27,386 bases of DNA, from the IMG/VR virus record IMGVR_UViG_2648501669_000002, positions 1 to 27,386 of that record. One strand, written 5' to 3'. Both the position numbers and the translations under genes were made by a program. The DNA comes from a virus (taxonomy: Duplodnaviria > Heunggongvirae > Uroviricota > Caudoviricetes). The notes below the pieces were generated by a model. It searched no databases. It was given only the letters and a program-made list of their open reading frames with translations, and was not told the origin of the DNA. This document shows positions 8,510-27,386 of the stretch, piece after piece (positions within the stretch are counted from its first letter, which is position 1; every line of letters starts with the position of its first letter).

Positions 8510-9469
8510 ATGAAAATTTGTATCGACGACGGCTCCACCAACATCAAGCTGGCATGGACTGAGAACGGCGAACGCCGCAACGCCATCAGCCCGAACAGCT
8601 TCAAGTCGGAATGGTCAGCGCCGTTCGGTGGCACGCAGCCCGCGAACTACATGCTTGATGGCGTGCGCTATGGTTTTGATCCGGTCAGCGATCGCTTTGT
8701 CCAGACGACCGACACGCAATACCAGTACAGCGATGTGAATGTTATTGCCATTCATCATGCGCTGGTCAAATCAGGCATCACACCACAGGAGGTGGATGTG
8801 GTTGTCACCCTGCCACTGAGCGAGTATTTCGATACAAACGCACAGCCGGACATGGCCAACATCAGCCGCAAAAAAGCGAACGTTATGCGCCCGGTGGAGT
8901 ACCAGAACGGCGAAGCATTCACTATCCGTAACGTGCGGGTTATGCCTGAATCCATTCCGGCAGGCTTTAAAGCACTGGCTGACATGAGTCCGTTTGAATC
9001 CCTGCTGATTGTGGATTTGGGCGGAACCACGCTGGATGTGGCAAAGGTTCAGGGGCAACTGGCAGGTATCAGCCAGGTGTTTTGCGATCCACACGTAGGC
9101 GTTTCTCTGATGGCCGATGCCGTGCTGTCGGTGATGGCCACCAACGGTATGCGTACCAGTCACCACATCGCTAATACCATTATCGAACATCGCCACGATG
9201 AAGCCTGGCTGCGCCAGCACATCCACAATGACGCGCATTACGCCAGCCTGATGGCAGTTATTCGTGAAAAGGAGGAAACACTGAAACAACGCGTGATCCG
9301 CGCGCTGGCGGGTTTTTCGGGTTACGGGCGGGTGATGGTTGTCGGTGGAGGGGCGGAGATTGTGGCACCCGCCATCCGCGAAGCCTGCGGAGTTAATGCG
9401 ACTTTCATCGCGGACGGGGTGCCACAGTTTGCTCTGGTTAATGGGCTGTACGCAATGGACAAGGAGTAA
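8510..9469 (+). CDS. parM: ParM-like actin-type segregation ATPase
   Basis: Track ORF of 319 aa. N-terminus MKICIDDGSTNIKLAW closely matches plasmid R1 ParM (MLVFIDDGSTNIKLQW, from memory), with further ParM-like segments (ISPNSFK, QYSDVNVIAIHHAL, DLGGTTLD). AAGGA SD. Confidence 0.85.
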   Translation: MKICIDDGSTNIKLAWTENGERRNAISPNSFKSEWSAPFGGTQPANYMLDGVRYGFDPVSDRFVQTTDTQYQYSDVNVIAIHHALVKSGITPQEVDVVVTLPLSEYFDTNAQPDMANISRKKANVMRPVEYQNGEAFTIRNVRVMPESIPAGFKALADMSPFESLLIVDLGGTTLDVAKVQGQLAGISQVFCDPHVGVSLMADAVLSVMATNGMRTSHHIANTIIEHRHDEAWLRQHIHNDAHYASLMAVIREKEETLKQRVIRALAGFSGYGRVMVVGGGAEIVAPAIREACGVNATFIADGVPQFALVNGLYAMDKE

Positions 9470-9473
9470 ACCA

Positions 9474-9785
9474 ATGACGACACCAACCAGACGGATAAGT
9501 TTCTATCTGAAGCCCGCCGCCGTCAAGAACGAAGGCGAAGCATGCGCCTGGCTGGACAGCCTTACACCAGAAGCCCGCAAAAGCGGCCAACGCGTGGCTT
9601 TTCTGGCCGGGCTGGCACTTCTGAAAATGAATCCGGCAGAGGCTTACCGACTGGCTGCATGGGCTGATGATGAAGCGTTATCAGTGACACAGACCAGGAC
9701 AGAACGCCCCGCATCACAGCCAGTATCAACCGCACAGATAACCAGCCAGATGGCCGGGAATATCCAGGCGTTATTTCCTGAATAA
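9474..9785 (+). CDS. parR: ParR-like centromere-binding adaptor
   Basis: In-frame Met 46 of track ORF 9339..9785, 4 nt after the parM stop. RRISFYLKP...LDSLTPEARKSGQRVAFLAGLAL parallels R1 ParR (RRTIAFKLNP...LDSIPQGERSRLNRAALTAGLAL, from memory). Confidence 0.7.
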   Translation: MTTPTRRISFYLKPAAVKNEGEACAWLDSLTPEARKSGQRVAFLAGLALLKMNPAEAYRLAAWADDEALSVTQTRTERPASQPVSTAQITSQMAGNIQALFPE

Positions 9786-14118: not shown

Positions 14119-14174
14119 ATATCCCATTATTTGCCGCAGGCATTTTTTTAACGATTATCTGTTTTCGGTATTTT

Positions 14175-14196
14175 TCGGATATATGCGCATATCCGA
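14175..14196. promoter_or_regulatory. Near-perfect 22-bp palindrome TCGGATATATGCGCATATCCGA in the P-O intergenic region
   Basis: 8-bp perfect arms; lies in the 230-bp AT-rich divergent region where P2-type phages have Ogr-dependent late promoters (established for P2; assignment here is inference). Confidence 0.35.
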
Positions 14197-14281
14197 AAGT
14201 ACCGGAAATTAATCAGATGACGACGTTTTCATTTCTCCGTTAAATAACGCCAGTTTAATTTTTATCAGCGGATTAATTCAG

Positions 14282-15178
14282 ATGACGAAGCAGAAAACAG
14301 ACTGGGTTGTGGTTGCCACATCAGGCCCCACCATCGACGGTCGGGAAATTGATCCGAAGTGGCTGACGGATGCCGCCGAGGTTTACAACCCGGACGAGCG
14401 AGCCGCCATGCTCTGGCCATATCACGCCGATTCCGGATGGCGTGCCTTCACCAATAACTACGGCATTGTTGATGCCCTGAAAGTCGAAAAATTTGGTGAA
14501 AAGGTGCAGCTTAAAGCACGCCTGATCCCAAATCGCTTCCTGATTGAAGCCAATAAGGCCGGGCAGAAACTTTTTACCTCCATTGAAGTGCGGGAAAACT
14601 ATCTGGGCACGGGCAAATTCTTTGTGTCCGGTATCGCCGTGACGGATACCCCAGCCAGCATTAACACTACACGCCTGCAGTTTTCCATGGGGGAAGCCAT
14701 CCATATGGGCAACGCAGAGGCGCTGAATTTTACGCTGCAGCCTGATGATGAGCAGGCCAAGCGCAACTTCTTCTCCCGCTTCTTCTCATCTGACAATCAC
14801 CAACAGGGAATTTACCAAGCCATGAACGAAGAACAGTTCAGCCAGTTAATGGGTGCCATTAATAAAACCAGTGAACGCCTGGACGAGCTGGAAAAAAACG
14901 TCGCGCAGTTCAGCGCGAAGGATGCCCCGAAAGATACCGGTGATAACAAGCCGGAAGGCAGCACCGGCGATCAGGGGCAGGACAACGCAGAACAGAACAA
15001 CAAGGACGACAAAACCTTCACGCTGACCACCGAGCAGGGCGAAAAGCTGTTCTCCACAGTGAACGCCATCGCGGAGAAGGTTACCAGTATGGAAACCGCA
15101 TTTGCTGAACTCAGCAAGGACGCCACGAAGCTGCCGGGCAACAATCCGGCCGGTGGCGAAACTTTTAACCTGGTGTAA
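14282..15178 (+). CDS. O: Capsid scaffolding protein, P2 gpO-like
   Basis: Track ORF of 298 aa; N-terminal region (VVVATSGPTIDGREIDP...FVSGIAVTDTPAS) parallels P2 gpO; conserved position. Confidence 0.85.
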   Translation: MTKQKTDWVVVATSGPTIDGREIDPKWLTDAAEVYNPDERAAMLWPYHADSGWRAFTNNYGIVDALKVEKFGEKVQLKARLIPNRFLIEANKAGQKLFTSIEVRENYLGTGKFFVSGIAVTDTPASINTTRLQFSMGEAIHMGNAEALNFTLQPDDEQAKRNFFSRFFSSDNHQQGIYQAMNEEQFSQLMGAINKTSERLDELEKNVAQFSAKDAPKDTGDNKPEGSTGDQGQDNAEQNNKDDKTFTLTTEQGEKLFSTVNAIAEKVTSMETAFAELSKDATKLPGNNPAGGETFNLV

Positions 15179-15192
15179 CCGGAGAGAGCGCA

Positions 15193-16206
15193 ATGAATTT
15201 CACACCAGAAGCACAAAAGCTGGTTAATCGCTATATCAGCGAACTGCAAAAAACATTCAGTGACTGCGAACGCTCGAGCGATCGTTACTTTTCACTGACC
15301 GAACCGCGCAGCATTGCCCTGCGTAAAGCCCTGCTGGAAAGCACGGAGTTTCTGAGTTTCATCACCTGCATGGACGTTCCGCACCCGCAGGGGCAGGTCG
15401 TCACCGTGGGCGAATCCACACTGCGCACCGGTCGCGTGAAAAGCGGTCGTTTCGCTAAAGGTTCGGGCATCAAAGGCAACGAATTTAAACTCGTTGAAAC
15501 TGATTCCTGCTGCGTGATCACCTGGGAACAACTCGCCATCTGGGCGAATGCCGGCAGCCCGCAGGAATTTTTCAACCTGATGAACTCCGCCGCCGTCACC
15601 AACTTTGCGCTGGATATGCTGCGCATTGGCTTTAACGGTAAAACAGCAGCGGAAAACTCTGACCCGGAAAGTCATCCGAACGGCGAAGACGTCAACATCG
15701 GCTGGCATGAAATCGCCAAAAAGTGGGGAGAACAGCCCGGCAATACCTCCCGTATTCTGACAGACGCCGTTACCCTGGGCGAAGGCGGCGATTATGTCGG
15801 TCTTGATGCCATGGCCTCAGACCTGATCCGCACTTACATCCCGGCACAGTATCACAACGACCCACGACTTACCGTACTGGTCGGCGCAGACCTTGTGGCT
15901 GCTGAAGAACTACGCCTCTACAACAAAGAGGATAAGCCTACCGAAAAAGTGGCCGCACAGTTGCTGACAAAGAACATTGCAGGCCGCAAGGCTATCATTC
16001 CGCCGTTTATGCCGGGCAAACGTATGGTGGTGACCATGCTGCCAAACCTGCAGATCCTGACGCTGAAAGGCTCCCGCCGCCGCAAGGCAGAAGATGTGGG
16101 CGATCGCAAACAGTTCGAAAACTCATACTGGCGTTATGAGGGGTACGCCCTGGGCGATCCGGATTTATATGCTGCCGTGGATGAGTCTGCGGTCACCATC
16201 TCCTGA
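15193..16206 (+). CDS. N: Major capsid protein, P2 gpN-like
   Basis: Track ORF of 337 aa; segments LRIGFNGKTAAENSD, GEGGDYVGLDAM and DPRLTVLVGADL parallel P2 gpN (MAGFNGVKRAETSD, GKGGDYASLDAL, DPDLVVIVGRQL, from memory). Confidence 0.85.
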   Translation: MNFTPEAQKLVNRYISELQKTFSDCERSSDRYFSLTEPRSIALRKALLESTEFLSFITCMDVPHPQGQVVTVGESTLRTGRVKSGRFAKGSGIKGNEFKLVETDSCCVITWEQLAIWANAGSPQEFFNLMNSAAVTNFALDMLRIGFNGKTAAENSDPESHPNGEDVNIGWHEIAKKWGEQPGNTSRILTDAVTLGEGGDYVGLDAMASDLIRTYIPAQYHNDPRLTVLVGADLVAAEELRLYNKEDKPTEKVAAQLLTKNIAGRKAIIPPFMPGKRMVVTMLPNLQILTLKGSRRRKAEDVGDRKQFENSYWRYEGYALGDPDLYAAVDESAVTIS

Positions 16207-16223
16207 TAAACGGAGCGCACGGT

Positions 16224-16934
16224 ATGCCAACGCCAATGCAGCGACAACGTGCCCGACAGATGGATGAGCGCCGTGCGGCGCTCATGACCAGAACAGACGG
16301 GCGCGCCGTCAGCACAGAGAGTCAGCACATTAAGCTGCTGGCACTGGATAACGATGTCAGACAACTGCACAACATGGAGCTGCTGTCTGACAAGCTGGAA
16401 TTCAAGCGGAACACGCTGCTGCCCCGCTGGCTGCCACACGCACAGGCTTATCTGGAGGGGGAACGCGTCTATCAGAATCCCATTCTGGTGTACTGCATCA
16501 TCTGGCTGTTCGATACCGGGCAGTTTGAGATGGCGCTGCGGTGGGCTGACATTGCCATTGAGCAGGGGCAAAAGACGCCGGAGAACTTCAAAAGCGAGCT
16601 GCCAACGTTTGTGGCCCATTTCATTCTTGAATGGGCAGAAGCCGAAGCTGAACGCGGGAACAGTATCGCGCCATATTTTCAGCAGGTGTTTGAAAAAATC
16701 CGCGACAAATGGCGCGTGAATGAACGCCTTGCTGCCCGCTACTGGCGCTTTGCAGGCATCCTGCTGCTGCGCGGCGATGACGGCAAGCCACAGGCCAGCG
16801 CAATTAACGATCCGGAGAGACTGCAACAGGCCGACCAGTGCCTGGAACGGGCTGCCTGGCTGCATCCCAAAATTCAGGTGAAAACCCTGCGCCAGCGCAT
16901 TGCCGCAAGACTGCGCGCGTTGCAGGGCACGTAA
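16224..16934 (+). CDS. M: Terminase small/endonuclease subunit, P2 gpM-like
   Basis: Track ORF of 236 aa (P2 gpM is about 247 aa); conserved position after N. Confidence 0.8.
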   Translation: MPTPMQRQRARQMDERRAALMTRTDGRAVSTESQHIKLLALDNDVRQLHNMELLSDKLEFKRNTLLPRWLPHAQAYLEGERVYQNPILVYCIIWLFDTGQFEMALRWADIAIEQGQKTPENFKSELPTFVAHFILEWAEAEAERGNSIAPYFQQVFEKIRDKWRVNERLAARYWRFAGILLLRGDDGKPQASAINDPERLQQADQCLERAAWLHPKIQVKTLRQRIAARLRALQGT

Positions 16935-17032
16935 ACGACTCCCAACAACCGGGCGGGCGCGGTGGAGGTGTGCCGGTAAAAGCCATCAGCACACTGCGGA
17001 AACCGGTCAGCCCGCCTTTCCCCGGAGTGAGC

Positions 17033-17527
17033 ATGTTTGACGGGAAAAGCATTCACTATCAGCAGGCCATTATTCAGAACGATGGATTCTGGCCGGATAT
17101 TGATGCCGGCGATTTTGAAAAGAGCCGCAGCATCCCCGCCGTCACGTCACACGAAACGGTGCTGACGGCGCTGCTTTGCGCGGTAACAGAAATTAACACT
17201 GAACTGGCTGCACGCCGTGAATACTGGCAGGAACAGGGCCACACCCGGGCCGCCGATATTCCGGGTTACACCGTGTTGCAACCAGAACCGCGCAATACGG
17301 ATGCACAACCTGAACGGATGCAGAACCACATTACAGCACTGTACACCAAGGCTGTGTATGCCCGCGCAAAGGCCGATCTTTTGCCGGAATCTGCCAGCGT
17401 GGGGCGACGCGAGGCGCAGCCCTCATCAGAAGCCAGCGAGAGCCGCCGGACGTTGCTGGCTGAAGCGGCAATGGCGGTGCGAGCGCTGCTGGGCCGACCG
17501 CGTGCATCCATCGCGCTGATTGATTAA
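17033..17527 (+). CDS. L: Head completion/stabilisation protein, P2 gpL-like
   Basis: In-frame Met 66 of track ORF 16838..17527 with GGAG SD 5 nt upstream; 164 aa (P2 gpL is 169 aa); FWPDIDAGDF and the C-terminal GRPRASIALID resemble P2 gpL. Confidence 0.7.
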   Translation: MFDGKSIHYQQAIIQNDGFWPDIDAGDFEKSRSIPAVTSHETVLTALLCAVTEINTELAARREYWQEQGHTRAADIPGYTVLQPEPRNTDAQPERMQNHITALYTKAVYARAKADLLPESASVGRREAQPSSEASESRRTLLAEAAMAVRALLGRPRASIALID

Positions 17528-17536
17528 GGAAATGGT

Positions 17537-18010
17537 ATGACGCAACTCGCCAGCCTGACGGCATTCATTGAAAACAATCTGCCGGCACGCGCACACATTC
17601 CGTTCACCAGTGACATGGACGACATCACGCTCGTTCCGTTTACGAAGTCGCTGGGGCACGGGCAGTTATGTACGCAGGTCCGAAAATATACGGCTTTTCT
17701 GCGATGGGACGCATGGCCCTATCGTCAGCTCAATCCGGATTTGGTGTTTTCTCTGGTTGAAGCCTGGCTGGCAGACAACGGCGGCGACCTGCGCCAGCGC
17801 CTGGCACCGGATGCGCCAGCCGTTGACGTCGAAGTGGATGATGAAAATGAAGTTGCATGGCTGGAAATCAGTCTGCCGCTGGTTGATCCCATCACCCTGG
17901 TTGAGGACGAAAACGGCCCCATCCCCAGAGGCGGGAAACGTTATCAGCTGGAAAAGCCTGAAATCTGGGTGGCTCAGGCGCATCAGCTTCACTGTCAGGT
18001 GATGCCATGA
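17537..18010 (+). CDS. R: Tail completion protein, gpR-like
   Basis: Track ORF of 157 aa (P2 gpR is 155 aa); the EAWLADNGGD and ISLPLVDPITLVED pattern resembles P2 gpR. Confidence 0.6.
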   Translation: MTQLASLTAFIENNLPARAHIPFTSDMDDITLVPFTKSLGHGQLCTQVRKYTAFLRWDAWPYRQLNPDLVFSLVEAWLADNGGDLRQRLAPDAPAVDVEVDDENEVAWLEISLPLVDPITLVEDENGPIPRGGKRYQLEKPEIWVAQAHQLHCQVMP

Positions 18011-18720
18011 CGCGCCCCGTGATTAACGAGTCACAACTCCGGCAGGTTCGCCGCGCCATCAGAGAGGCAGAGCTTCCGCCGGCAAAGGCCAGAAAGCTGC
18101 TGGTTCGCATTGCGAAATACGGCCTGATACCGGCTGCACGACGCAATGTGAAAGCACAGCGAACACCGGAGGGGGTAGCCTGGGCACCACGAAAAAGACC
18201 GGATAAAGCCAGCGGCAGGTATAAAAACAAAATGCTGCTGGGGCTGCCGAAGCTGCTGGCCATCAGGGTTGACGGCAGCGGGAAAAGTGTCCGCCTTTTC
18301 TTCAAAAAAGGGGATTACAACACCGGCTCTCATGGTGGGGCGGTCGCGTGGGTGCAACAGCACGGCGCAACCATCAAAAGCCGCGCCACAAAACGCCGGG
18401 ACAGCGAAGCCATGCGCACCCGTCCCGCCACACGACGGCAGGCAGAACGCCTTCTTTCTCTGGGCTTTCGCGCCCCCGTCGGCGCAGTCAGCAAAAAAAC
18501 CGGACGCAGAGGACGCAGAAAGCCTTCTCTGAAATGGATTATGGAAAACATGAGTATGGCGCAGGCCGGACTGGTGATCAGCATTCTGAAAGGCGAGCAG
18601 AAAAAACGTGTATGGGAAATCAAAATCCCCTCCCGCGCATTTCTGGGAGCCAGCGATGCTGAATTTGCCCGCATTCTGGAAGCGCAGCTGCGCAGCCTGC
18701 ATTACGGCGGCACGAGATAA
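18007..18720 (+). CDS. Virion morphogenesis / tail completion protein, gpS-like, with extended basic C-terminal region
   Basis: Track ORF of 237 aa overlapping the R stop; the position matches P2 S but it is about 90 aa longer, so the family call is tentative. Confidence 0.5.
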   Translation: MTRPVINESQLRQVRRAIREAELPPAKARKLLVRIAKYGLIPAARRNVKAQRTPEGVAWAPRKRPDKASGRYKNKMLLGLPKLLAIRVDGSGKSVRLFFKKGDYNTGSHGGAVAWVQQHGATIKSRATKRRDSEAMRTRPATRRQAERLLSLGFRAPVGAVSKKTGRRGRRKPSLKWIMENMSMAQAGLVISILKGEQKKRVWEIKIPSRAFLGASDAEFARILEAQLRSLHYGGTR

Positions 18721-18739
18721 CAAAATCAGGAGACAAATT

Positions 18740-19888
18740 ATGACCTGGCCATCTGTCACAATTGAACAGTACAACACGTTCAGTAGCTCGCCGGACGGCG
18801 TGGAAAATACGCTGCTGTTTGTGGGCAATGCACAAAACAACAAAGGTAAGGTTCTGCCGGTTAATGCCAACAGCGATCTGGATGAACTGCTGGGAACAAA
18901 CGCCAGCCCGCTGAAGAACTTCCTTCGGTCTGCGCTGACCAATGCCGGACAGAATGCCTTTTTCTATGTTGCCGTTCTGCCGGAAGCCGGCAAAGGCAAA
19001 GAAGCGACGCCAGCCTGCCAGGTATGGCAGAACGCCATACTGGCGGCTCAGGAAACTGTTTCAGTTGAAGGCGTGGTGATCACCGAACCGGTCAGCACGA
19101 AGGATGACATCAACGCCATACAGGCGTTACGTCAGACCATCATCAATAAATATCAGCGCCGCATCTGGTTCATTCTGACCATTGCCGCCAATAACGGCAG
19201 CAAAACCTGGGCAGATTACGTTGCTGAACTGACCACGCTACAGGAAGGCATCGCCGCCCCGCAAATCATGCTGGTTCCGGAAATTTTTGGATTTGAACCG
19301 GGCGTTCTTGCCGGCCGTCTGTGTAACAGCGCCGTCACCATTGCTGATAGTCCGGCGCGTGTGGCAACCGGAGCGCTGTCCGCACTGAAGACCACGGAAC
19401 GCCCGAAAGACAGCGCAGGGCAGGCAATTGATCTCGACACTCTGCAGGCACTGGCAACCGCCCGCTACAGCGTGCCCATGTGGTATGCCGACTATGACGG
19501 CCTTTACTGGGCTGACGGTGTAACACTTGAGGTGGAAGGCGGGGACTACAACGTCATTGAGCATGTCCGCATTGCTGATAAGGTGGCGCGCCGCGTGCGG
19601 CTGATGGCCATCCCCAAGATTGCCGACCGCTCGCTGAACAGCACGCCGGGCAGCATTGCCGCACATGAAACGCTGTTTGCCCGCCCACTGCGTGCCATGG
19701 CGAAATCCATGCAAATTAACGGCATCACGTTTCCGGGCGAAGTGAAATCGCCCCGGAAAGGCGACGTAGTTATCACCTGGCAGGACGAAAAGACGGTCAG
19801 CATCAGCATTGTCGTCCGCCCTTACGCCTGCCCTAAAACCATCAAAGTGGGCATTCAGCTGGATAAATCTCTGGAGGAAAACGCATGA
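18740..19888 (+). CDS. Major tail structural protein, sheath-like (382 aa)
   Basis: In-frame Met 45 of track ORF 18608..19888 with CAGGAG SD 7 nt upstream; size and position (before a tube-like gene, chaperone and tape measure) fit a contractile-tail sheath. No clear similarity to P2 FI recalled. Confidence 0.5.
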   Translation: MTWPSVTIEQYNTFSSSPDGVENTLLFVGNAQNNKGKVLPVNANSDLDELLGTNASPLKNFLRSALTNAGQNAFFYVAVLPEAGKGKEATPACQVWQNAILAAQETVSVEGVVITEPVSTKDDINAIQALRQTIINKYQRRIWFILTIAANNGSKTWADYVAELTTLQEGIAAPQIMLVPEIFGFEPGVLAGRLCNSAVTIADSPARVATGALSALKTTERPKDSAGQAIDLDTLQALATARYSVPMWYADYDGLYWADGVTLEVEGGDYNVIEHVRIADKVARRVRLMAIPKIADRSLNSTPGSIAAHETLFARPLRAMAKSMQINGITFPGEVKSPRKGDVVITWQDEKTVSISIVVRPYACPKTIKVGIQLDKSLEENA

Positions 19889-20340
19889 CGACCCGCATTA
19901 ACGGCATGGCGTTTGACACTTTTATCGGTGGAACGGATATCCATGTGAAAAGCATCTCACTGGACATCAGCGATGAAAGCGCCGTTGCCAAAACCCGTGG
20001 CATCCCTGACGGCAAACTGCGCGGCCCTGTCAGTGCCGAAGGTGAAATCGAAATGAGTACCCGCAGCTTTAACCAGCTCGGGGAAGTGGCTGCTCAGGCG
20101 GGATCGTGGCGTGACCTGCCGCCAATGGATTTTGTGTTTTACGCCAATACGGGAACCGAAGAAATCCGCGTTGAAGCCTTCGGTTGTGAGCTGATGCTTT
20201 CCGGCCTGTTAAGCATTGACACCGAGAGCGCAGATCTGACCACGCACAAAATCAAGTACGTGGTGGCAAGCCCTGACTTTGTGCGTATCAACGGCGTGCC
20301 CGTTCTCTCAGAGAACGACGTGCGCGGACTGATGGGGTGA
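19885..20340 (+). CDS. Tail tube-like protein (151 aa)
   Basis: Track ORF overlapping the sheath-like stop (ATGA); size and position fit a tube protein. Family call by synteny only. Confidence 0.45.
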   Translation: MTTRINGMAFDTFIGGTDIHVKSISLDISDESAVAKTRGIPDGKLRGPVSAEGEIEMSTRSFNQLGEVAAQAGSWRDLPPMDFVFYANTGTEEIRVEAFGCELMLSGLLSIDTESADLTTHKIKYVVASPDFVRINGVPVLSENDVRGLMG

Positions 20341-20343
20341 ATC

Positions 20344-20640
20344 ATGCAGGAGCATGAGCGCACCATTATCACTCTGGGCATTCTGGGCGGAATCGCTGCC
20401 GCAAGTCGGGTGCTGGCTGGCGCAGAGCCGATTACGTTGCGGTTGTTTGTGGGCCGAACCCTGCTGGGGAGCGCGCTGGGTGTTTCTGCCGCTGCCCTGC
20501 TGGTTCGCTACCCGAACCTTGACCCACTGGCCATTGCCGGCGCAGGCACCGCAATGGGCGTTGCCGGTTACCAGATTGTTGAAATCTTCCTGCGTCATAT
20601 GCGCCGGAAGCTGGGCGAGAAAGAGAACAAAGAGGAGTAA
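20344..20640 (+). CDS. Putative holin (98 aa, three predicted TM segments and a charged C-terminus)
   Basis: Track ORF. Hydrophobic stretches (IITLGILGGIAAASRVLAG; LLGSALGVSAAALLV; LAIAGAGTAMGVAGYQIV) followed by RHMRRKLGEKENKEE; sits immediately upstream of the endolysin. Confidence 0.6.
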   Translation: MQEHERTIITLGILGGIAAASRVLAGAEPITLRLFVGRTLLGSALGVSAAALLVRYPNLDPLAIAGAGTAMGVAGYQIVEIFLRHMRRKLGEKENKEE

Positions 20641-20645
20641 CAGCA

Positions 20646-20753
20646 ATGCTGTCCCGCAGGGAACAAAAAGCTGCCGCCATTGCCTGGAAAATTATCCGGG
20701 CACTGTGGCACTGGCTGCACAAACCTCAACAACCCCGTAAGGAGCAAAAATGA
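20646..20753 (+). CDS. Possible small lysis-associated ORF (35 aa)
   Basis: Not in the track. ATG at 20646 with GAGGAG upstream; stop overlaps the endolysin ATG (ATGA). Translation MLSRREQKAAAIAWKIIRALWHWLHKPQQPRKEQK is amphipathic and basic. Could instead be untranslated spacer. Confidence 0.25.
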   Translation: MLSRREQKAAAIAWKIIRALWHWLHKPQQPRKEQK

Positions 20754-21091
20754 AACTCTCTGATAAACAACAAAAATTTACCGTCATGATCGGAAAACTC
20801 ATCCAGTTTGCCCATCAGCGCGGTTATGGCCTGACGTTCGGTGAAGCGTACCGCACGCCAGAACAGGCAAAACTCAACGCACAAAAGGGATCAGGCATTG
20901 CCAACAGCCTGCACTGTCAGCGGCTGGCCGTGGATTTTAACCTGTTTATTAACGGTGAATATCAGACCCGCACAGAGGCCTACCGCGAGCTGGGCGAGTA
21001 CTGGGAATCCCTTGGTGGCGCATGGGGCGGTCGTTTTAAAAACCGCCCGGATGGCAATCATTTCAGCCTTGAGCACGACGGCGTGCGCTGA
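20750..21091 (+). CDS. Endolysin, peptidase M15 (VanY-like zinc D,D- or L,D-peptidase) family
   Basis: Track ORF of 113 aa with AAGGAG SD. Zinc-ligand pattern H-x6-D (SLHCQRLAVD) and a C-terminal DGNHFSLEH as in M15 peptidase endolysins. Confidence 0.75.
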   Translation: MKLSDKQQKFTVMIGKLIQFAHQRGYGLTFGEAYRTPEQAKLNAQKGSGIANSLHCQRLAVDFNLFINGEYQTRTEAYRELGEYWESLGGAWGGRFKNRPDGNHFSLEHDGVR

Positions 21092-21098
21092 TTTTACG

Positions 21099-21128
21099 CT
21101 TAATAAGCCTTCCTGCAGGCTTATTAAG
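21099..21128 (+). terminator. Near-perfect 30-bp palindrome / hairpin after the endolysin
   Basis: 12-bp stem (CTTAATAAGCC.../...GGCTTATTAAG) followed by a moderately U-rich stretch; 8 nt downstream of the endolysin stop. Confidence 0.4.
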
Positions 21129-21155
21129 CCCTCTTATTCTTGACTTTAAAAGGAA

Positions 21156-21449
21156 ATGATGATGAACGATAAAAACACCCAGACTACCGCAGAGAACACC
21201 ATCACTTTGCAGGTCGGCGAGCATGAACTGACGTTTATCCCGACCGTTAAAGCCTACAACGATCTGCAGAACGACTTCATGCCGGATAACAAAATCGCGC
21301 CGCTGAAAAACTACCTGCGCCGCATCGTGATTAAAGAGCACCGCGATCTGCTGAACCAGTTGCTGGAAAAACCAGGAATGCCGGCCAGCCTGGCAACAGC
21401 CGTGAATAACGAGTTTGTGCCGGAAGTGGAAATCACCGTAAAAAAATAA
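21156..21449 (+). CDS. Tail assembly chaperone (P2 gpE / lambda gpG analogue)
   Basis: Track ORF of 97 aa immediately upstream of the tape measure gene; it ends in the A-run that forms the slippery site. Confidence 0.7.
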   Translation: MMMNDKNTQTTAENTITLQVGEHELTFIPTVKAYNDLQNDFMPDNKIAPLKNYLRRIVIKEHRDLLNQLLEKPGMPASLATAVNNEFVPEVEITVKK

Positions 21450-21637
21450 AAAGCCATCTGGGGGCCATTGATCGCAATGACCTTACCCGGATGCTGATCC
21501 TGCGCCGCCACTGGCTGCCCGGCGAGGATGACTCGCCGCAGTCACTGGCTGCCGCCGTCTGGCTGGATAACCACTACTGGGAAAATATGAGCATCGCCGT
21601 CAATAACGGCATTATCCGTGCTTTTAAGGGATCGTAA
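21156..21637 (+). CDS. Frameshift-extended chaperone product (gpE+E-prime / G-T analogue), about 160 aa
   Basis: Chaperone frame joined to the -1 frame at 21440-21446; the conserved position of this chaperone frameshift upstream of tape measure genes is established knowledge. Confidence 0.5.
21440..21446 (+). other. Programmed -1 ribosomal frameshift slippery heptamer A_AAA_AAA
   Basis: Read directly. The -1 frame stays open from the heptamer for about 64 codons to the TAA at 21635-21637, which overlaps the tape measure ATG (TAATG). Confidence 0.55.
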
Positions 21638-23733
21638 TGTCACAACAGCGCCTTGAATTACTTCTTGAACTGACAGACCGCCTGACAAGGCCGTTGCGTG
21701 CAGCCGGGCGACAGGTTCAGGGATTTGCTGCAACAAGTCGGGGAGCCTTTCGGGACATTGCTACCGGAGGCGCTGCGCTCTGGGGAGTGGGTGCAGCCAT
21801 TCAGGGGGCACTGATGCCAGCCATTGAAATGGACAGGGCGCTCGGTGAGGTGAAATCACTGGGCGTCGCAGAGTCCGGATTGCGTAAACTCAGCCGCGCC
21901 GCCGTTGATTTCACTATGGAATACGGCGGGGCTGCGCAGGATTTTGTGCGTGCTTCTTACGACATCCAGTCAGCCATTGCCGGGTTAACTGACGATGAGC
22001 TGTCCCGCTTCACCACCGCATCAGCAACGGTGGCAGCAGCAACCAAATCCAGCAGCCAGACCATTACCGCCTACATGGGCACCATGTACGGCATCTTTAA
22101 AGACCAGGCTGATGCCATGGGAAAAAGCAAATGGGTGGAGCAGGTCGCCGGGCAAACCGCCACCGCCGTGCAAATGTTTAAAACAACCGGCGATAACATG
22201 TCAGCAGCGTTCACCACGCTGGGTGCCAGTGCAAAAGCGGCCGGTATTGATGCGGCTGAACAGTTCGCCGTGCTGGGACAACTACAGGCCACAATGAGTG
22301 GCAGCGAGGCCGGGACAAAATACAAGGCATTTCTTGCCGCAGTAGGCAGCGCCCAGAAAAAGCTGGGGCTTAATTTCGTGAATAAAGACGGCACGATGAA
22401 AAGTGTTGTCGAGATCATGAAACTTATCAGGGGTAAATTTGGTGATCTGTCAAAAGTGGCTGATTCCGATTTGCTGAAAAGCGCCTTTGGCTCCGATGAA
22501 GCTGTGGCCATGATTAAATTACTCAATGCGGACATTGGCGGACTTGAAAAGAATATCGCCACGCTGGGCAATATCAAAGGTATGGATAAGGCTGTCGAAA
22601 TGGCGCAGGCCATGGCTGATCCATGGGAACAGGCCGCCGCAATTATTAACGGCATTCGCATCGAAATCGGCACGCAGTTGCTGCCTGTTCTGTACCCGTT
22701 TATCCAGAAAAGCAACGAAGGCGGTAAATCCTTTGTTGCCTGGTTACGTCTGTATCCCAATATCACACGGGCTATTGGTTTACTGTCTGCCGCCCTGCTG
22801 GGCATTGCCGCAGTGGGTGCCGTTGTCAACATTATGGTGGGTGTGGCGAAGTTTGTCTGGACAGGACTGCGGCTGGTCTGGCTGGCAGCAGTTGCACCCC
22901 TGAAGATTCTCATTCTGCTGAAACGCACACTGACGGCTACCATGTGGGCGTTCACTGTAGTTGCCCGAACGGTCAGGGCGCTGTATCTGGCCATGTCCAT
23001 TGCTATGGGAACATACAACGTCAAAGCAAAAATTCAGCTGGCGCTGCTGAAATTACAGCGCGCCGGACTCTGGCTTTATTCTGTTGCGCTGGGTGCCGCC
23101 GGCATAGCAATGAAAATCTACACCGCAGTCACCAGCGGAGCTGCAATTGCAACACAGTTACTTTTCAGCCCCATCACATTAATCATCCTGGCACTGGCTG
23201 CGCTGGGCGTGGGCATTTATTTCCTGATCACCCGCTGGGATGAGATTAAAGCCGCGCTGATGGATACCGCCGCCTTTCAGTGGGTGGCTGAAATGGTCGG
23301 CAGTATGGGGGCATGGTTCGGCAATGCATGGAACACAATCCAGGACGGCTGGAATGCACTGGTTAACTATTTTTCCACGCATTCACCTCTGGACGCCCTG
23401 AAGGATATCGCCGGCGGCATCCTGAACATTTTCAGTAACCTCTGGGAACTGGTGAAACAGTCCTTCAGTGATTCATGGGGCTGGATTGTAGGCAAGCTCA
23501 ACATGATCCCCGGCGTCAATATCGACACACCGGAAAGCACAGGAAGTGGCGAAGGCTCCGTATTAACCGGCGGCAAAGCCATCAGTGCGGGACCGGGCGG
23601 CATTGCGGCAGAGATGCAGAACAACAGCGAAAACCAGACCACCATCGACAACTCCCGTCGTGTGGTTAACGTCAATGTGCAGGATCCATCCCCTGCCCGT
23701 CTTAACGAGTGGATGGAGCTGCATGCATACTGA
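21637..23733 (+). CDS. Tail tape measure protein
   Basis: Track ORF of 698 aa; alpha-helical, Ala/Gly-rich sequence with hydrophobic segments in the C-terminal half; directly after the chaperone frameshift. Confidence 0.8.
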   Translation: MSQQRLELLLELTDRLTRPLRAAGRQVQGFAATSRGAFRDIATGGAALWGVGAAIQGALMPAIEMDRALGEVKSLGVAESGLRKLSRAAVDFTMEYGGAAQDFVRASYDIQSAIAGLTDDELSRFTTASATVAAATKSSSQTITAYMGTMYGIFKDQADAMGKSKWVEQVAGQTATAVQMFKTTGDNMSAAFTTLGASAKAAGIDAAEQFAVLGQLQATMSGSEAGTKYKAFLAAVGSAQKKLGLNFVNKDGTMKSVVEIMKLIRGKFGDLSKVADSDLLKSAFGSDEAVAMIKLLNADIGGLEKNIATLGNIKGMDKAVEMAQAMADPWEQAAAIINGIRIEIGTQLLPVLYPFIQKSNEGGKSFVAWLRLYPNITRAIGLLSAALLGIAAVGAVVNIMVGVAKFVWTGLRLVWLAAVAPLKILILLKRTLTATMWAFTVVARTVRALYLAMSIAMGTYNVKAKIQLALLKLQRAGLWLYSVALGAAGIAMKIYTAVTSGAAIATQLLFSPITLIILALAALGVGIYFLITRWDEIKAALMDTAAFQWVAEMVGSMGAWFGNAWNTIQDGWNALVNYFSTHSPLDALKDIAGGILNIFSNLWELVKQSFSDSWGWIVGKLNMIPGVNIDTPESTGSGEGSVLTGGKAISAGPGGIAAEMQNNSENQTTIDNSRRVVNVNVQDPSPARLNEWMELHAY

Positions 23734-24073
23734 TAAACCGCTTTACATTGATTTGCTCATCACCGGCCGCAATCTCACGCTGAACAGCGCCAGTGAGCCG
23801 GTGTTATGCAACAACAGGGAAAGTATTGCCCAGGACTGCCAGCACGCCATCATTGAGAGCGGACTGGCAACGCGCCTGCTGGCTGAAAAAAGCCCGACAC
23901 TTCGTGCTGACATCATGATGCAGATGACGCTGCTGATTGAAGATGATGAGCGCATCACACCCGGCACGGTCAGTGTGACAGAAGAAACCCCGCTTTCTGG
24001 TCGCCTGCTGATTAGCGCCCACACCGAAGATTTTTTTGAACCCCTGACTTTTACGGTATCTCTTGATGATTAA
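23723..24073 (+). CDS. Baseplate wedge protein, gpW/gp25-like (116 aa)
   Basis: In-frame Met 47 of track ORF 23585..24073, overlapping the tape measure end by 11 nt; length matches P2 gpW (115 aa); loose similarity to the gpW C-terminal pattern (from memory). Confidence 0.5.
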   Translation: MHTDKPLYIDLLITGRNLTLNSASEPVLCNNRESIAQDCQHAIIESGLATRLLAEKSPTLRADIMMQMTLLIEDDERITPGTVSVTEETPLSGRLLISAHTEDFFEPLTFTVSLDD

Positions 24074-25250
24074 CGGCAAACCCACCGCAGATTACGAGCG
24101 CATTCTGGCTGATAACGGCATGCCGGTAACCGAAGAACAGGCACGCGCTGAATTTGAAGCCATTGTCAAAGACGAAGGGCTTATCACCAACACATCCCGC
24201 ATGTCGCCGTTCTGGCGACTGATTACAGCTATCACCACAAAACCCGTGATGTGGCTGAAAGATGCGCTGGTTAATGTGGTGATGAAAAACCTGTTTCTGG
24301 CTGATGCCAGCGGTGTATTCGTTGATGTTTTTGCCTGGGCGGTAAACCTGCAACGCAAGGCCGCCACGCACGCAGCCGGCGTGATTCGTTTCACCAAAAA
24401 CGACATTGATCGCGCAGTTACCGTGCCGGCCGGTACGCAGATTCAGACAGAACGCATTAACGGCGTGATTTATACGCTGACCGTTGTCAGGGATACCGTT
24501 ATTCCGGCAGGAACACTCAGCATGAACATCGATGTTTCTGCAGAACAGGCCGGAGCCGGCTTTAACCTTGCGCCGGGATATTACCGCATCCTTCCGGTGG
24601 CGATTGATGGTATTGCCGGTGTTGAGAACGATGAAAACTGGCTGACCACACCGGGTGCCAACGAAGAAAGCGATGACGAGCTGCGTGATCGTGTTCGTAA
24701 TCAGTTTAATCTTGCCGGCGCTTATCACACCGATGCCGTTTACCGGGGATTAATTGCCGGCGTTGCCGGCATCAGTGCCGACCGCATCTATTTTCTGCAT
24801 GACGCACCACGCGGCCCCGGCACAGCAAATGCTTACATTCTGCTGGATACCGGCATCGCATCCGAACCGTTCGTTGATGCAGTAAACGCATTCATTAACG
24901 ATGAAGGTCATCACGGACACGGTGATGATCTGCGCTGTTTTTCCATGCCTGAAACACGCCACACCCTGACCGTGACACTCTGGTTATATGCAACGCTGAA
25001 CCTCAGCGATGAGGAAATTCAGACGTTATTGCGCAATGTGGAAAATCTGGTTCGCTGTGCATTTCGAGAAAACAGCGATTATGACGTTCAGAAAACATGG
25101 CCGTATAGCCGTTTCAGCATGTCCAGACTGGGCGAAGAGATCCACCAGGTATTTCCACAGGTGGAGTCGGTTACATTTTCTCTTCCGGATATTCTCAGTG
25201 ATCTGGCTGTTCCTCGTCTGGAATCCCTTACTGTGGAGGTGAGCGCATGA
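24063..25250 (+). CDS. J: Baseplate J-like protein (gpJ / gp47 family)
   Basis: Track ORF of 395 aa overlapping the W-like gene; position and general sequence character fit the baseplate J family. Confidence 0.7.
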   Translation: MMINGKPTADYERILADNGMPVTEEQARAEFEAIVKDEGLITNTSRMSPFWRLITAITTKPVMWLKDALVNVVMKNLFLADASGVFVDVFAWAVNLQRKAATHAAGVIRFTKNDIDRAVTVPAGTQIQTERINGVIYTLTVVRDTVIPAGTLSMNIDVSAEQAGAGFNLAPGYYRILPVAIDGIAGVENDENWLTTPGANEESDDELRDRVRNQFNLAGAYHTDAVYRGLIAGVAGISADRIYFLHDAPRGPGTANAYILLDTGIASEPFVDAVNAFINDEGHHGHGDDLRCFSMPETRHTLTVTLWLYATLNLSDEEIQTLLRNVENLVRCAFRENSDYDVQKTWPYSRFSMSRLGEEIHQVFPQVESVTFSLPDILSDLAVPRLESLTVEVSA

Positions 25251-25882
25251 AACTTCCGGAGATCCCTGAATTCCCGCTCCCCACCTGGATGAATAAAGGT
25301 GAGCCGTTAACGCTGGCACATTCATCGCATCGCTACTGGGAAAAGGTATACAGCTGGCTGACGTGGCCACTACAGCAGATTGATGTCGACACCTGCGCAG
25401 AGCCTTTACTTAACCTGCTGGCTTATCAGCGCAATATCACCCGATTTAAAGGTGAGCCGGTTTCATTATTTCGCTTAAGAGTGAAACACGCGTTTATTAA
25501 CGCTCAGGACTCTGGCGAACGCGCCGGCTTCGAACGCATCTTTAAGCGTCTTGGCGTGGGAGACGTTAAAACACTGGAACGGCAACTGCAGCATGACTGG
25601 GACGTTATTTTACTGCGCATTAATGACACCCAGTTAAGTGAAAACAACGCGCTGATGATGCAGCTCGTGCGCCAGTATGGTCGTACCTGCAGGCGCTATT
25701 TCTTTCAGGTAATCAATACAACCACTGCCCGGATGACAGCCGGCACATTCGATGGCCATTACAGGTATCACACAGCAGAAGCAACGGTGAGAAAGGACAC
25801 CATCTGGTTAACCGCTTCGCTACAGGCAGGACATTACGGCCTGTCCGTGGAACATTACACATTACAGGCAGATGAAGCATGA
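25247..25882 (+). CDS. I: Tail protein I-like (gpI family)
   Basis: Track ORF of 211 aa overlapping the J stop and the tail-fibre start; conserved J-I-H order. Confidence 0.65.
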   Translation: MKLPEIPEFPLPTWMNKGEPLTLAHSSHRYWEKVYSWLTWPLQQIDVDTCAEPLLNLLAYQRNITRFKGEPVSLFRLRVKHAFINAQDSGERAGFERIFKRLGVGDVKTLERQLQHDWDVILLRINDTQLSENNALMMQLVRQYGRTCRRYFFQVINTTTARMTAGTFDGHYRYHTAEATVRKDTIWLTASLQAGHYGLSVEHYTLQADEA

Positions 25883-27386
25883 GCACGATTATTACTGAAC
25901 AGTACGAACACTGGTGCGCAAATCAAATCATCAGCGGAAAAGCTGCGCGCCCGGATACATTTGTTTTTGCATATATTCCGGGACAGGATGAATCCGCAGA
26001 GATCCCCCGCGATGAGATACTCCCTGATGAATCCATGATTCAGTATCGTGCGCCGGTCACCCAGTACGGCCTCCTGTCGCCGAACGCGACCGCGTTTTCC
26101 ATCATTCTGGACACGACAGTCGGCGACTTCGAATACAACTGGATCGGTCTGCTGAACGAAGAAAGCGGCGTGCTCTGCATGATTGCACACACACCTCGTC
26201 AGCAAAAAATTAAAACAGCGAACGGCGTGCAGGGAAACAACCTGATCCGCACATTTTCCATGGAGTTTGACGGCGCAGCCGCAGCAATGCATATCGATGT
26301 CAGCGCTGATGTCTGGCAGATTGATTTCACTGCACGCCTTGCAGGAATGGATGAGGCCCGCCGGCTGCTGGCGTTTGATCACTACGGTGAAGCCGCTTTT
26401 CTGGGGGATGGTTTTCAGGTCAGCTATCAGGACGGTACCGCTACTGTTGCCGCCGGCGTGGGGTATGTGGGAGGTCTGCGCGTCAGTCTGCGCGAACCTT
26501 ACAGCCTGCCGGCTGCGGTCGGGGATACCCTCTGGATTGATGCAAGCTGGCAGGGATTTGTTACCGGCGAATGGAATACCGTTTTTACGTTCTGCGCCCG
26601 CCAGGAACATGCGTCTTATACAGACGGTAACGGCTTCCGACACTTTGTCGCGCCACTTGCAAAAATGACAGGAGACGGCCCACAGGACCTGCGCCCGGAG
26701 ACACCCGACGAAGAACAAAGCAATGCACTGGCAGAGCACGAAAAATCCCGCCATCATCCGGACGCAACACTGAAGGAGAAAGGCTTTGCGCAGTACAGCA
26801 ACGCCACCGACAGCGACGCAGAAGACCGCGCCGCCACATCAAAGGCAGTAAAAGCCGCAATGGATAAAGCAAAAGACGCTGTTGAGCGCGACGGCGACAC
26901 CATGACCGGGGAGCTGAAAATCCGTGGTGTTAATGCACTGAGGATTTTCAACGAAGCTTTTGGCCTGATTTTTCGTCGTTCTGAAGAGTGCCTGCATCTT
27001 ATTCCCACCCGGGAAAATCAGGGCGAAAACGGCGATATTGGCCCCCTGCGTCCGTTCACTATTAATTTGCGGACGGGTGAAATATCCATGTCGCATAAAG
27101 TGTCTGTTGGCGGTGGTTCTCAGGTCAATGGTGCGCTGGGTATCGGCGTTCAGAACGCGCTGGGTGGAAACTCAATTGCTTTCGGGGATAACGATACCGG
27201 CCTGAAACAGAATGGTGATGGCCTGCTGGATGTTTATGCCAATAGCGTGCATGTGTTGCGTTTTCAGGCTGGCAGTATCCAGAGTAATAAACCTGTAAAC
27301 GTTACCGGGCGGGTAACACCGTCAGACTACGGAAACTTTGATGCCCGTTACCAGACCAAATCAGGGGGCGTGCAGGATGTGCGTTA
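25879..27386 (+). CDS. H: Tail fibre protein, gpH-like (partial, continues past the window end)
   Basis: Not in the track because no stop occurs in-window. ATG at 25879 overlaps the gpI stop (ATGA); the frame stays open to 27386. Contains AEHEKSRHHPDATLKEKGFAQYSNATDS...ATSKAVKAAMDKA, matching the conserved P2 gpH motif (AEHEQSRRHPDASLTAKGFTQLSSATNS...ATPKAVKAAYDLA, from memory). Confidence 0.75.
   Translation, partial: MSTIITEQYEHWCANQIISGKAARPDTFVFAYIPGQDESAEIPRDEILPDESMIQYRAPVTQYGLLSPNATAFSIILDTTVGDFEYNWIGLLNEESGVLCMIAHTPRQQKIKTANGVQGNNLIRTFSMEFDGAAAAMHIDVSADVWQIDFTARLAGMDEARRLLAFDHYGEAAFLGDGFQVSYQDGTATVAAGVGYVGGLRVSLREPYSLPAAVGDTLWIDASWQGFVTGEWNTVFTFCARQEHASYTDGNGFRHFVAPLAKMTGDGPQDLRPETPDEEQSNALAEHEKSRHHPDATLKEKGFAQYSNATDSDAEDRAATSKAVKAAMDKAKDAVERDGDTMTGELKIRGVNALRIFNEAFGLIFRRSEECLHLIPTRENQGENGDIGPLRPFTINLRTGEISMSHKVSVGGGSQVNGALGIGVQNALGGNSIAFGDNDTGLKQNGDGLLDVYANSVHVLRFQAGSIQSNKPVNVTGRVTPSDYGNFDARYQTKSGGVQDVR

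Follow-up and report, generated by a model that had tools for sequence, protein, structure and literature searches.

A tail module of the HP1 type in an Escherichia coli prophage, with hub and spike genes predicted beyond the fibre genes

Phage P2 encodes its tail in the operons V-W-J-I-H-G and FI-FII-E-T-U-D, with X and the lysis genes preceding R and S, and makes V, D, U and X as separate proteins. In the Haemophilus phage HP1 (Hpunavirus), the tail genes run orf21 (R), orf22 (S), orf23 (sheath), orf24 (tube), hol, lys, orf25, orf26 (chaperone), orf27 (tape measure), orf28 (DUF2590), orf29 (J), orf30 (I), orf31 (fibre), orf32 (assembly), orf33, orf34 and orf35. The tail genes of HP1-like phages are generally without similarity to those of P2, and the subfamily containing these phages has contractile-tail morphology (PMC2771037). 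The tail modules of the HP1 and P2 subgroups have been described as anciently diverged paralogues with HHpred identities of 10-19%, the module of the HP1 subgroup being a much older paralogue (PMC10612066). That the gpD and gpV homologues of HP1 are fused has also been published (PMC2771037, PMC10612066). Here we analyse a 27,386-nucleotide stretch of tailed-phage DNA (positions 1 to 27,386 of IMG/VR record IMGVR_UViG_2648501669_000002; hereafter the window), in which a first-pass annotation had noted a tail module in non-P2 order, with no recognisable spike or hub genes between tape measure and baseplate. We conclude with high confidence that a temperate myovirus of the HP1 subgroup of Peduoviridae has integrated in E. 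coli and that the region holds its tail module, the hub and spike genes lying beyond the end of the window.

Tail genes were called from a listing of open reading frames (ORFs) and from hidden Markov model (HMM) scans of the window proteins against Pfam and PHROG. From 17.5 kb to the window end, the plus strand consists of tightly packed tail genes in the order R-like, S-like, sheath, tube, holin, M15 endolysin, chaperone, tape measure, W-like, J-like, I-like and fibre (Table 1). This is the order given in the first-pass annotation, whose span of 18740-25878 correctly reaches from the start of the sheath gene to the end of the I-like gene; the gpR-like gene sits just upstream. It does not follow the P2 layout of R S / V W J I H G / FI FII E T U D, which had been quoted in agreement with the P2 annotation. 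The W-like gene overlaps the tape-measure stop and therefore leaves no room for a gene between the two, and the scanned window proteins have no Pfam or PHROG match to Phage_base_V, gpD or gpU. The absence of spike and hub genes between tape measure and baseplate is thus borne out.

The window order is gene for gene that of HP1 orf21 to orf31, and is found again in the annotations of ESSI-2, K139 and phiO18P. Three of the Pfam families in the window are named after or defined on HP1, namely Phage_HP1_Orf24, DUF2586 and DUF2590. The colinear order is accompanied by a DUF2586/phrog_907 sheath and a Phage_HP1_Orf24 tube, and immediately upstream lies a P2-family head and packaging block (Q, P, O, N, M, L), as judged by the RefSeq annotation of a 98.5%-identical prophage, L001. 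An alignment based on the I-like protein brought in 79 further IMG/VR loci; with one family profile per gene, 85 related loci were mapped. Throughout the complete related loci (58/58), the genes run R, S, sheath, tube, chaperone, tape measure, W-like, J-like, I-like, fibres and then the orf33-, orf34- and orf35-like genes (O33, O34 and O35). Shorter loci are all contiguous pieces of the same order, and two otherwise complete loci are without a detectable S match. The gap from tape measure to W-like gene has a median of -18 nt over the 85 related loci, and O33 starts 1.5-7.2 kb after the I-like gene, the interval being occupied by fibre genes.

The predicted hub and spike genes are out of view because the window stops inside the fibre gene. 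What follows can be read from near-identical prophages. L001, in E. coli NZ_LR778147, is 97.5% identical to the window over 14138-27386 and 98.5% identical over 17500-27386, and the IMG/VR contig L010 is 97.6% identical over window positions 15248-27386. In both, O33, O34 and O35 come after the fibre and assembly genes. The first-pass annotation had suggested that the missing spike and hub genes might lie downstream, and this is what L001 and L010 contain, O35 being the predicted hub and spike (see below). Genes of the orf33-35 type are present in 73 of the 85 related loci, and the loci without them end early at contig ends. We infer that the exact source genome also carries orf33-35.

O35 was examined on the L001 protein and on a 99%-identical representative (P0001) rather than on the window. 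A phmmer search of the protein against the Protein Data Bank (PDB) returned nothing meaningful. A profile built from 32 homologues and searched against PDB sequences matched the C-terminal β-helix of T4 gp5 (E 4.4e-5, positions 409-507) and the OB domain of VgrG (positions 312-345). The AlphaFold model is confident for residues 1-240, with a predicted local confidence (pLDDT) of 80-94, but of low confidence in its C-terminal half (pLDDT <50 at 411-478), the β-helix being poor, as is expected when a single chain of a trimeric spike is modelled. In Foldseek comparisons with the PDB, the model matched full-length VgrG-like spikes: AlgoCIS (1e-17), PVC (6e-17), Afp8 (1e-14) and VgrG1 (1e-13). It also matched hub-only proteins over ~300 columns, namely Mu gp44 (1e-9), the MuSo2 43-kDa protein, the pyocin R2 hub (8.5e-5) and T4 gp27 (5e-4); a weaker match was to the Mu gp45 spike (2e-3). 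As modelled, O35 is a VgrG-like single chain that joins a gpD/gp27-type hub to a gpV/gp5-type spike with OB fold and β-helix. VgrG, Afp8, Pvc8 and the AlgoCIS spike show the same succession of gp27-like hub, OB fold and β-helix; O35 differs from them in being a phage tail component, with 10-15% identity.

The other two genes of this group are less easily placed. PF25759 is the sole Pfam assignment of O34; a PDB profile search found no relative, and hhalign gave a probability of 0.2% against P2 gpU (PF06995 family). A published HHpred match of ORF34 to gpU was marked 'uncertain'. O34 lies directly upstream of the hub gene, mirroring the U-D arrangement in P2. ORF34 may be a gpU-like adaptor between hub and tube. 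ORF33 has no Pfam family, and a homologue in ACA1 has been found in virions by mass spectrometry.

The W-like protein, of the DUF2590 family, was compared with the sheath initiators T4 gp25 and P2 gpW. By sequence, PF10761 is its sole Pfam match at E up to 10, with no Pfam link to GPW_gp25 (PF04965); its profile found nothing among PDB sequences, and hhalign against P2 gpW gave a probability of 0.1%. The predicted structure (pLDDT 86.5) shows a clear gp25 fold, and its best Foldseek match is a 126-residue T4 baseplate chain, inferred to be gp25 (TM 0.62). The protein has the α/β fold and the length of ~100-130 residues of the gp25/gpW group, and its gene adjoins that of the gp6/J-like wedge protein. 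On the strength of this model, DUF2590 is a sheath initiator of the gp25/gpW fold, with the same fold and role in a separate sequence family. The earlier label 'W-like' was therefore right in function and fold.

The sheath protein is 47% identical to HP1 orf23 and 55% identical to the ESSI-2 sheath, and the tube protein is 51% identical to HP1 orf24. Neither has a PDB relative by sequence (phmmer and profile search for the sheath, profile search for the tube). Their roles as putative sheath and tube are inferred from PHROG and RefSeq annotation, synteny, the contractile-tail morphology of the subfamily and published HHpred matches. Among the baseplate proteins, the J-like protein is 55% identical to HP1 orf29.

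Comparison with P2 separates the head from the tail. By tblastn, P2 matches the replication, portal, terminase, scaffold, capsid and head-completion proteins at 25-43% identity, and the best HP1-type match for each of them is 35-59% identical, always above its P2 value; for the head and packaging block, identity to HP1-type phages is 31-59%. The first-pass description of the head and replication genes as P2-type holds in that they are shared with P2, but they are closer to HP1-type phages. P2 and the prophage have in common the head and packaging genes Q, P, O, N, M and L, replication gene A, R and S, and an ogr-type regulator (25-43% where tblastn matches), and the overall set of tail functions is the same. 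The S-like protein is the sole tail protein that matches P2 by tblastn (31%). The R-like protein and every protein from the sheath through ORF35 have no tblastn match in P2, the link of the R-like protein to P2 gpR being through Pfam family and profile comparison. In contrast, the proteins from sheath to I-like, together with ORF33-35 of the relatives, are 25-67% identical to HP1, ESSI-2, K139 or phiO18P (ORF33 is unmatched in phiO18P).

HMM searches gave the same picture. No six-frame ORF in the window or in 84 related loci matched the P2-type HMMs for V, W, J, FI, FII, E, U or X, and none matched that for D except a P2-type gpD ORF at the edge of one locus, L073. HP1-type HMMs likewise went unmatched in P2-type loci, with strong cross-matches for S and tape measure only. 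Pfam, with matches admitted up to E 10, gave none to the P2-type FI, FII, V, W, D, U and X families. Profiles from 85 HP1-type and 87 P2-type loci were then aligned with hhalign, more diverse P2-type genomes being added by accession; the P2 FI relatives from the locus search were 85-99% identical. The probabilities were 94.5% for R, 98% for S (residues 11-126), 99.8% for the tape measure with gpT, 56% for I and 29% for J; O35N against gpD reached 9%, top-ranked, over 185 columns. Canonical FI and FII, or V, D and U within the annotated ORFs, were thus looked for by HMM, tblastn and hhalign and were not found.

The gpD ORF of L073 (36-1124; E 1e-150 to the P2 gpD profile) lies ~9 kb upstream of the I-like gene. 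It probably marks the end of a neighbouring P2-type prophage or else a hybrid.

Several points weigh against assigning the region to an HP1-type module with its hub and spike downstream. The window stops before the site of orf33-35, as does L007, a 99.9%-identical contig that ends 1.4 kb past the window end, and the presence of these genes is an extrapolation from prophages with 97.5-97.6% identity. Sheath and tube are assigned by annotation, synteny, morphology and published HHpred. We recognised no LysM/gpX counterpart. Finally, hhalign gave <3% for sheath/FI, tube/FII, W-like/W, chaperone/E, ORF34/U and spike/V, negatives that are weak evidence, as the P2-side alignments are shallow (9-19 sequences) and secondary-structure terms were left out. 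The equivalences of these pairs draw on structure (for the W-like protein and the hub-spike), synteny and published HHpred.

Loss of the hub and spike genes from a defective prophage that makes no functional tails is a very improbable explanation. It would account for a window without a hub or spike gene, the sequence after the fibre genes being out of view here and in L007, and decay does occur in the lineage, as the second fibre gene pair of L001 is pseudogenised; but the genes go missing precisely where the window breaks off, within a fibre ORF that is intact, and the tail ORFs in the window are full length against relatives. Near-identical prophages retain intact orf33-35, and the related loci contain these genes, apart from those cut by contig ends. 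We rejected a defective prophage on the intact window ORFs and the retention of orf33-35 in near-identical prophages.

A P2-type tail module whose operons have been permuted in this phage, with its gene families unchanged, might be considered given that Pfam and hhalign still tie R, S, tape measure, J and I to P2 families and that P2-type gene order varies somewhat (in Mannheimia phage 587AP1 the tape measure comes after S), but it is scarcely credible: sheath, tube, W-like, chaperone, ORF33-35, R-like, tape measure, J-like and I-like proteins are without tblastn similarity to P2; sheath, tube, W-like, chaperone and ORF33-35 are without HMM or profile similarity beyond the 9% of hub with gpD; and the Pfam families to which the proteins belong are distinct and carry the name of HP1. 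Phages of Haemophilus, Vibrio, Aeromonas, Cronobacter and E. coli all keep to one order, which is therefore ancient rather than a local rearrangement. A rearranged P2 tail was rejected on these unrelated sequence families and this fixed order. The first-pass annotation had proposed a tail that was either from a different lineage or rearranged; the tblastn and profile divergence from P2 favours the former, and the separate families and fixed order speak against the latter.

Read as an HP1-type module, the region would supply a complete contractile tail. The R-like and S-like proteins would cap the tail, complete it and join it to the head, and the DUF2586 sheath and Orf24-family tube would polymerise on the baseplate. 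The chaperone, with its putative -1 frameshift variant, and the tape measure would set tail and tube length. The DUF2590 sheath initiator and the J-like and I-like wedge proteins would form the baseplate rim that bears the fibres, and the centre of the baseplate would be a trimeric hub-spike (O35) with ORF34 and probably ORF33. The genes for these central parts would come last in the module, behind those for the fibres and their assembly.

Table 1. Tail and lysis features of the window, and the three genes found downstream in L001 and L010.
Feature	Position	Strand	Size	Evidence or counterpart
gpR-like tail completion/tail terminator	17537-18010	+	157 aa	PF06891 E 4.6e-16; phrog_65 'tail terminator'
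gpS-like tail completion/neck protein	18007-18720	+	237 aa	PF05069; phrog_26
HP1-type contractile tail sheath (putative)	18740-19888	+	382 aa	DUF2586 PF10758 E 2.9e-126; phrog_907 'tail sheath' E 6.8e-147
HP1-type tail tube protein (putative)	19885-20340	+	151 aa	PF10772 Phage_HP1_Orf24 E 1.1e-50; phrog_1182
Holin	20344-20640	+	98 aa	PF04550 E 5.5e-28; phrog_175
Endolysin, M15 metallopeptidase	20750-21091	+	113 aa	PF13539 E 3.2e-11; PHROG endolysin families
Hairpin	21098-21129	+	13-bp stem	top terminator-like site in consensus scan; shortly after endolysin stop
Tail assembly chaperone	21156-21449	+	97 aa	PF10963 Phage_TAC_10 E 1.6e-26; counterpart of P2 gpE
Slippery heptamer A_AAA_AAA (21440-21446) and -1 frame extension	21440-21637	+		sequence inspection; counterpart of P2 E+E'
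Tape measure protein	21637-23733	+	698 aa	PF10145; phrog_28 E 2e-90
W-like sheath initiator, DUF2590 (predicted)	23723-24073	+	116 aa	PF10761; functional counterpart of P2 gpW/T4 gp25
Baseplate wedge protein, gpJ/gp6-like	24066-25250	+	394 aa	Baseplate_J PF04865 E 1e-31; phrog_6 E 2.7e-62
Baseplate wedge protein, gpI-like	25247-25882	+	211 aa	Tail_P2_I-like PF09684 E 6.5e-5; phrog_1228 E 6e-82
Tail fibre, cut by window end	25879-27386	+	502/566 codons within window	translation
O33 (orf33-like)	after fibre genes in L001, L010		237 aa	phrog_1677
O34 (orf34-like)	L001, L010		191 aa	PF25759 'HP1 ORF34 baseplate complex protein' E 2.5e-53
O35 (orf35-like)	L001, L010		565 aa	phrog_2258 'baseplate protein'

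The chaperone gene has the sequence features of a programmed -1 frameshift of the P2 E/E' or lambda G/GT type. The slippery heptamer directly precedes the chaperone stop (21447-21449), and the -1 frame stays open until a stop at 21635-21637, abutting the tape-measure start at 21637. The extension contains the annotated DUF6890 ORF (21491-21637), whose counterpart in L001, 98.5% identical, matches PF21830 (E 3.5e-24). Frameshifting at the end of the chaperone gene is thus suggested by sequence, and what RefSeq lists as a 'DUF6890 family protein' is in all likelihood the chaperone's frameshift extension rather than a gene in its own right.

The lysis genes stand between tube and chaperone. HP1 has a lysozyme, whereas the window encodes an M15 peptidase endolysin and has an E. 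coli host. HP1, ESSI-2 and phiO18P have a spanin, but none of the Rz/Rz1 type was recognised around the endolysin (window 20344-21156). Overlapping alternative-frame ORFs at 20354-20740 and 20841-21143 in the cassette have no PHROG match. The hairpin between endolysin stop and chaperone start has a perfect-looking stem and a weak T-run; it is a candidate terminator or attenuator that may divide the late genes into two transcription units, lysis genes on one side and the chaperone and tape-measure block on the other.

At the start of the module, the S-like protein has a C-terminal extension relative to P2 gpS (237 versus 150 residues), and residues 11-126 alone align to gpS. The basic C-terminal half is also present in HP1 orf22. 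K139 has a short S-like gene (orf22, 166 residues) followed by a separate small ORF (orf23).

The complete fibre gene of 566 codons is found in L007, and the L001 copy contains Phage_tail_fib and Phage_fiber_2 domains. The distal part (26849-27386) has 87-91% nucleotide identity to fibre genes of the unrelated phiP27, Rac-SA53 and Actinobacillus phage pPE4, which indicates that the receptor-binding end of the fibre was probably exchanged horizontally. In close relatives, the interval from the first fibre pair to orf33 also holds a second fibre gene (679 residues) with an assembly-like gene of the DUF4376 type; this second pair lies at 12894-15505 in L010 and at 25641-28268 in L001, where the second fibre is reduced to pseudogene fragments. 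Two fibre/assembly pairs in its relatives, and ParM-type partition genes in the prophage itself, set this lineage apart from HP1.

The partition genes are a ParM-type ATPase (phrog_691, E 7e-90) and an adjacent 'plasmid partitioning/stability' gene at window 8510-9785 (L001 6437-7715). The pair adjoins the replication endonuclease and is unusual cargo for an integrated P2/HP1-like prophage; it may be a sign of an episomal phase or of a role in stabilisation. Past orf35 in L001, at 32046-33806 and before the host gene flk, are a Hok/Gef toxin gene, a Com-like regulator and a DNA methyltransferase, the latter two forming a pair in the style of Mu mom/com.

Prophages matching the window occur in 42 of 5,426 complete E. 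coli genomes (at least 80% of a queried 9.9 kb). HP1 shares the order and the Pfam families, with tail proteins 25-57% identical where matched (R is unmatched). The closest cultured relatives are Cronobacter phage ESSI-2 (Seongnamvirus) and its Escherichia, Salmonella and Yersinia relatives, which have the same module order; identity to this group is 55% for the sheath, 67% for the W-like protein, 61% for the J-like protein, 59% for the capsid and 45% for O35. Megablast against 50,697 phage records gave fibre fragments as the sole nucleotide-level match. There being no nucleotide-level match to the ESSI-2 group, the prophage represents a distinct species- or genus-level lineage.

The prophage is thus an undescribed E. 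coli member of the HP1 subgroup. Its tail has the published layout that is normal for this subgroup, the HP1/P2 split and the D-V fusion having been published too, and the observation is genuine but unremarkable; taken as a whole, the phage is a typical member of the subgroup, not a recent chimera or a mosaic peculiar to itself. For annotation, the consequence is that an HP1-type prophage will be mistaken for one without spike and hub by readers or pipelines that look for the P2 layout, and that P2-based annotation gives DUF2586, DUF2590, the Orf24 family and ORF33-35 no more than the label 'unknown' or 'hypothetical', which is also the case in RefSeq here. The DUF names returned one incidental mention in the full-text literature. 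There is also a structural gap, in that sequence searches link no tail protein of the HP1 type to a solved structure.

Our analysis confirms two assignments in the E. coli lineage: DUF2590 as a gp25-fold initiator and the orf35-like protein as a fused hub-spike. A broader interpretation, which we regard as tentative and rather doubtful, is that this deeply diverged contractile-tail lineage builds an economical baseplate from a single VgrG-like hub-spike chain, DUF2590 with the J-like and I-like proteins, ORF34 and the lineage-specific virion protein ORF33, with no recognisable LysM protein (gpX/gp53). If ORF33 and ORF34 do connect tube, tape measure and hub in new ways, the HP1 subgroup would have a distinct minimal baseplate architecture.

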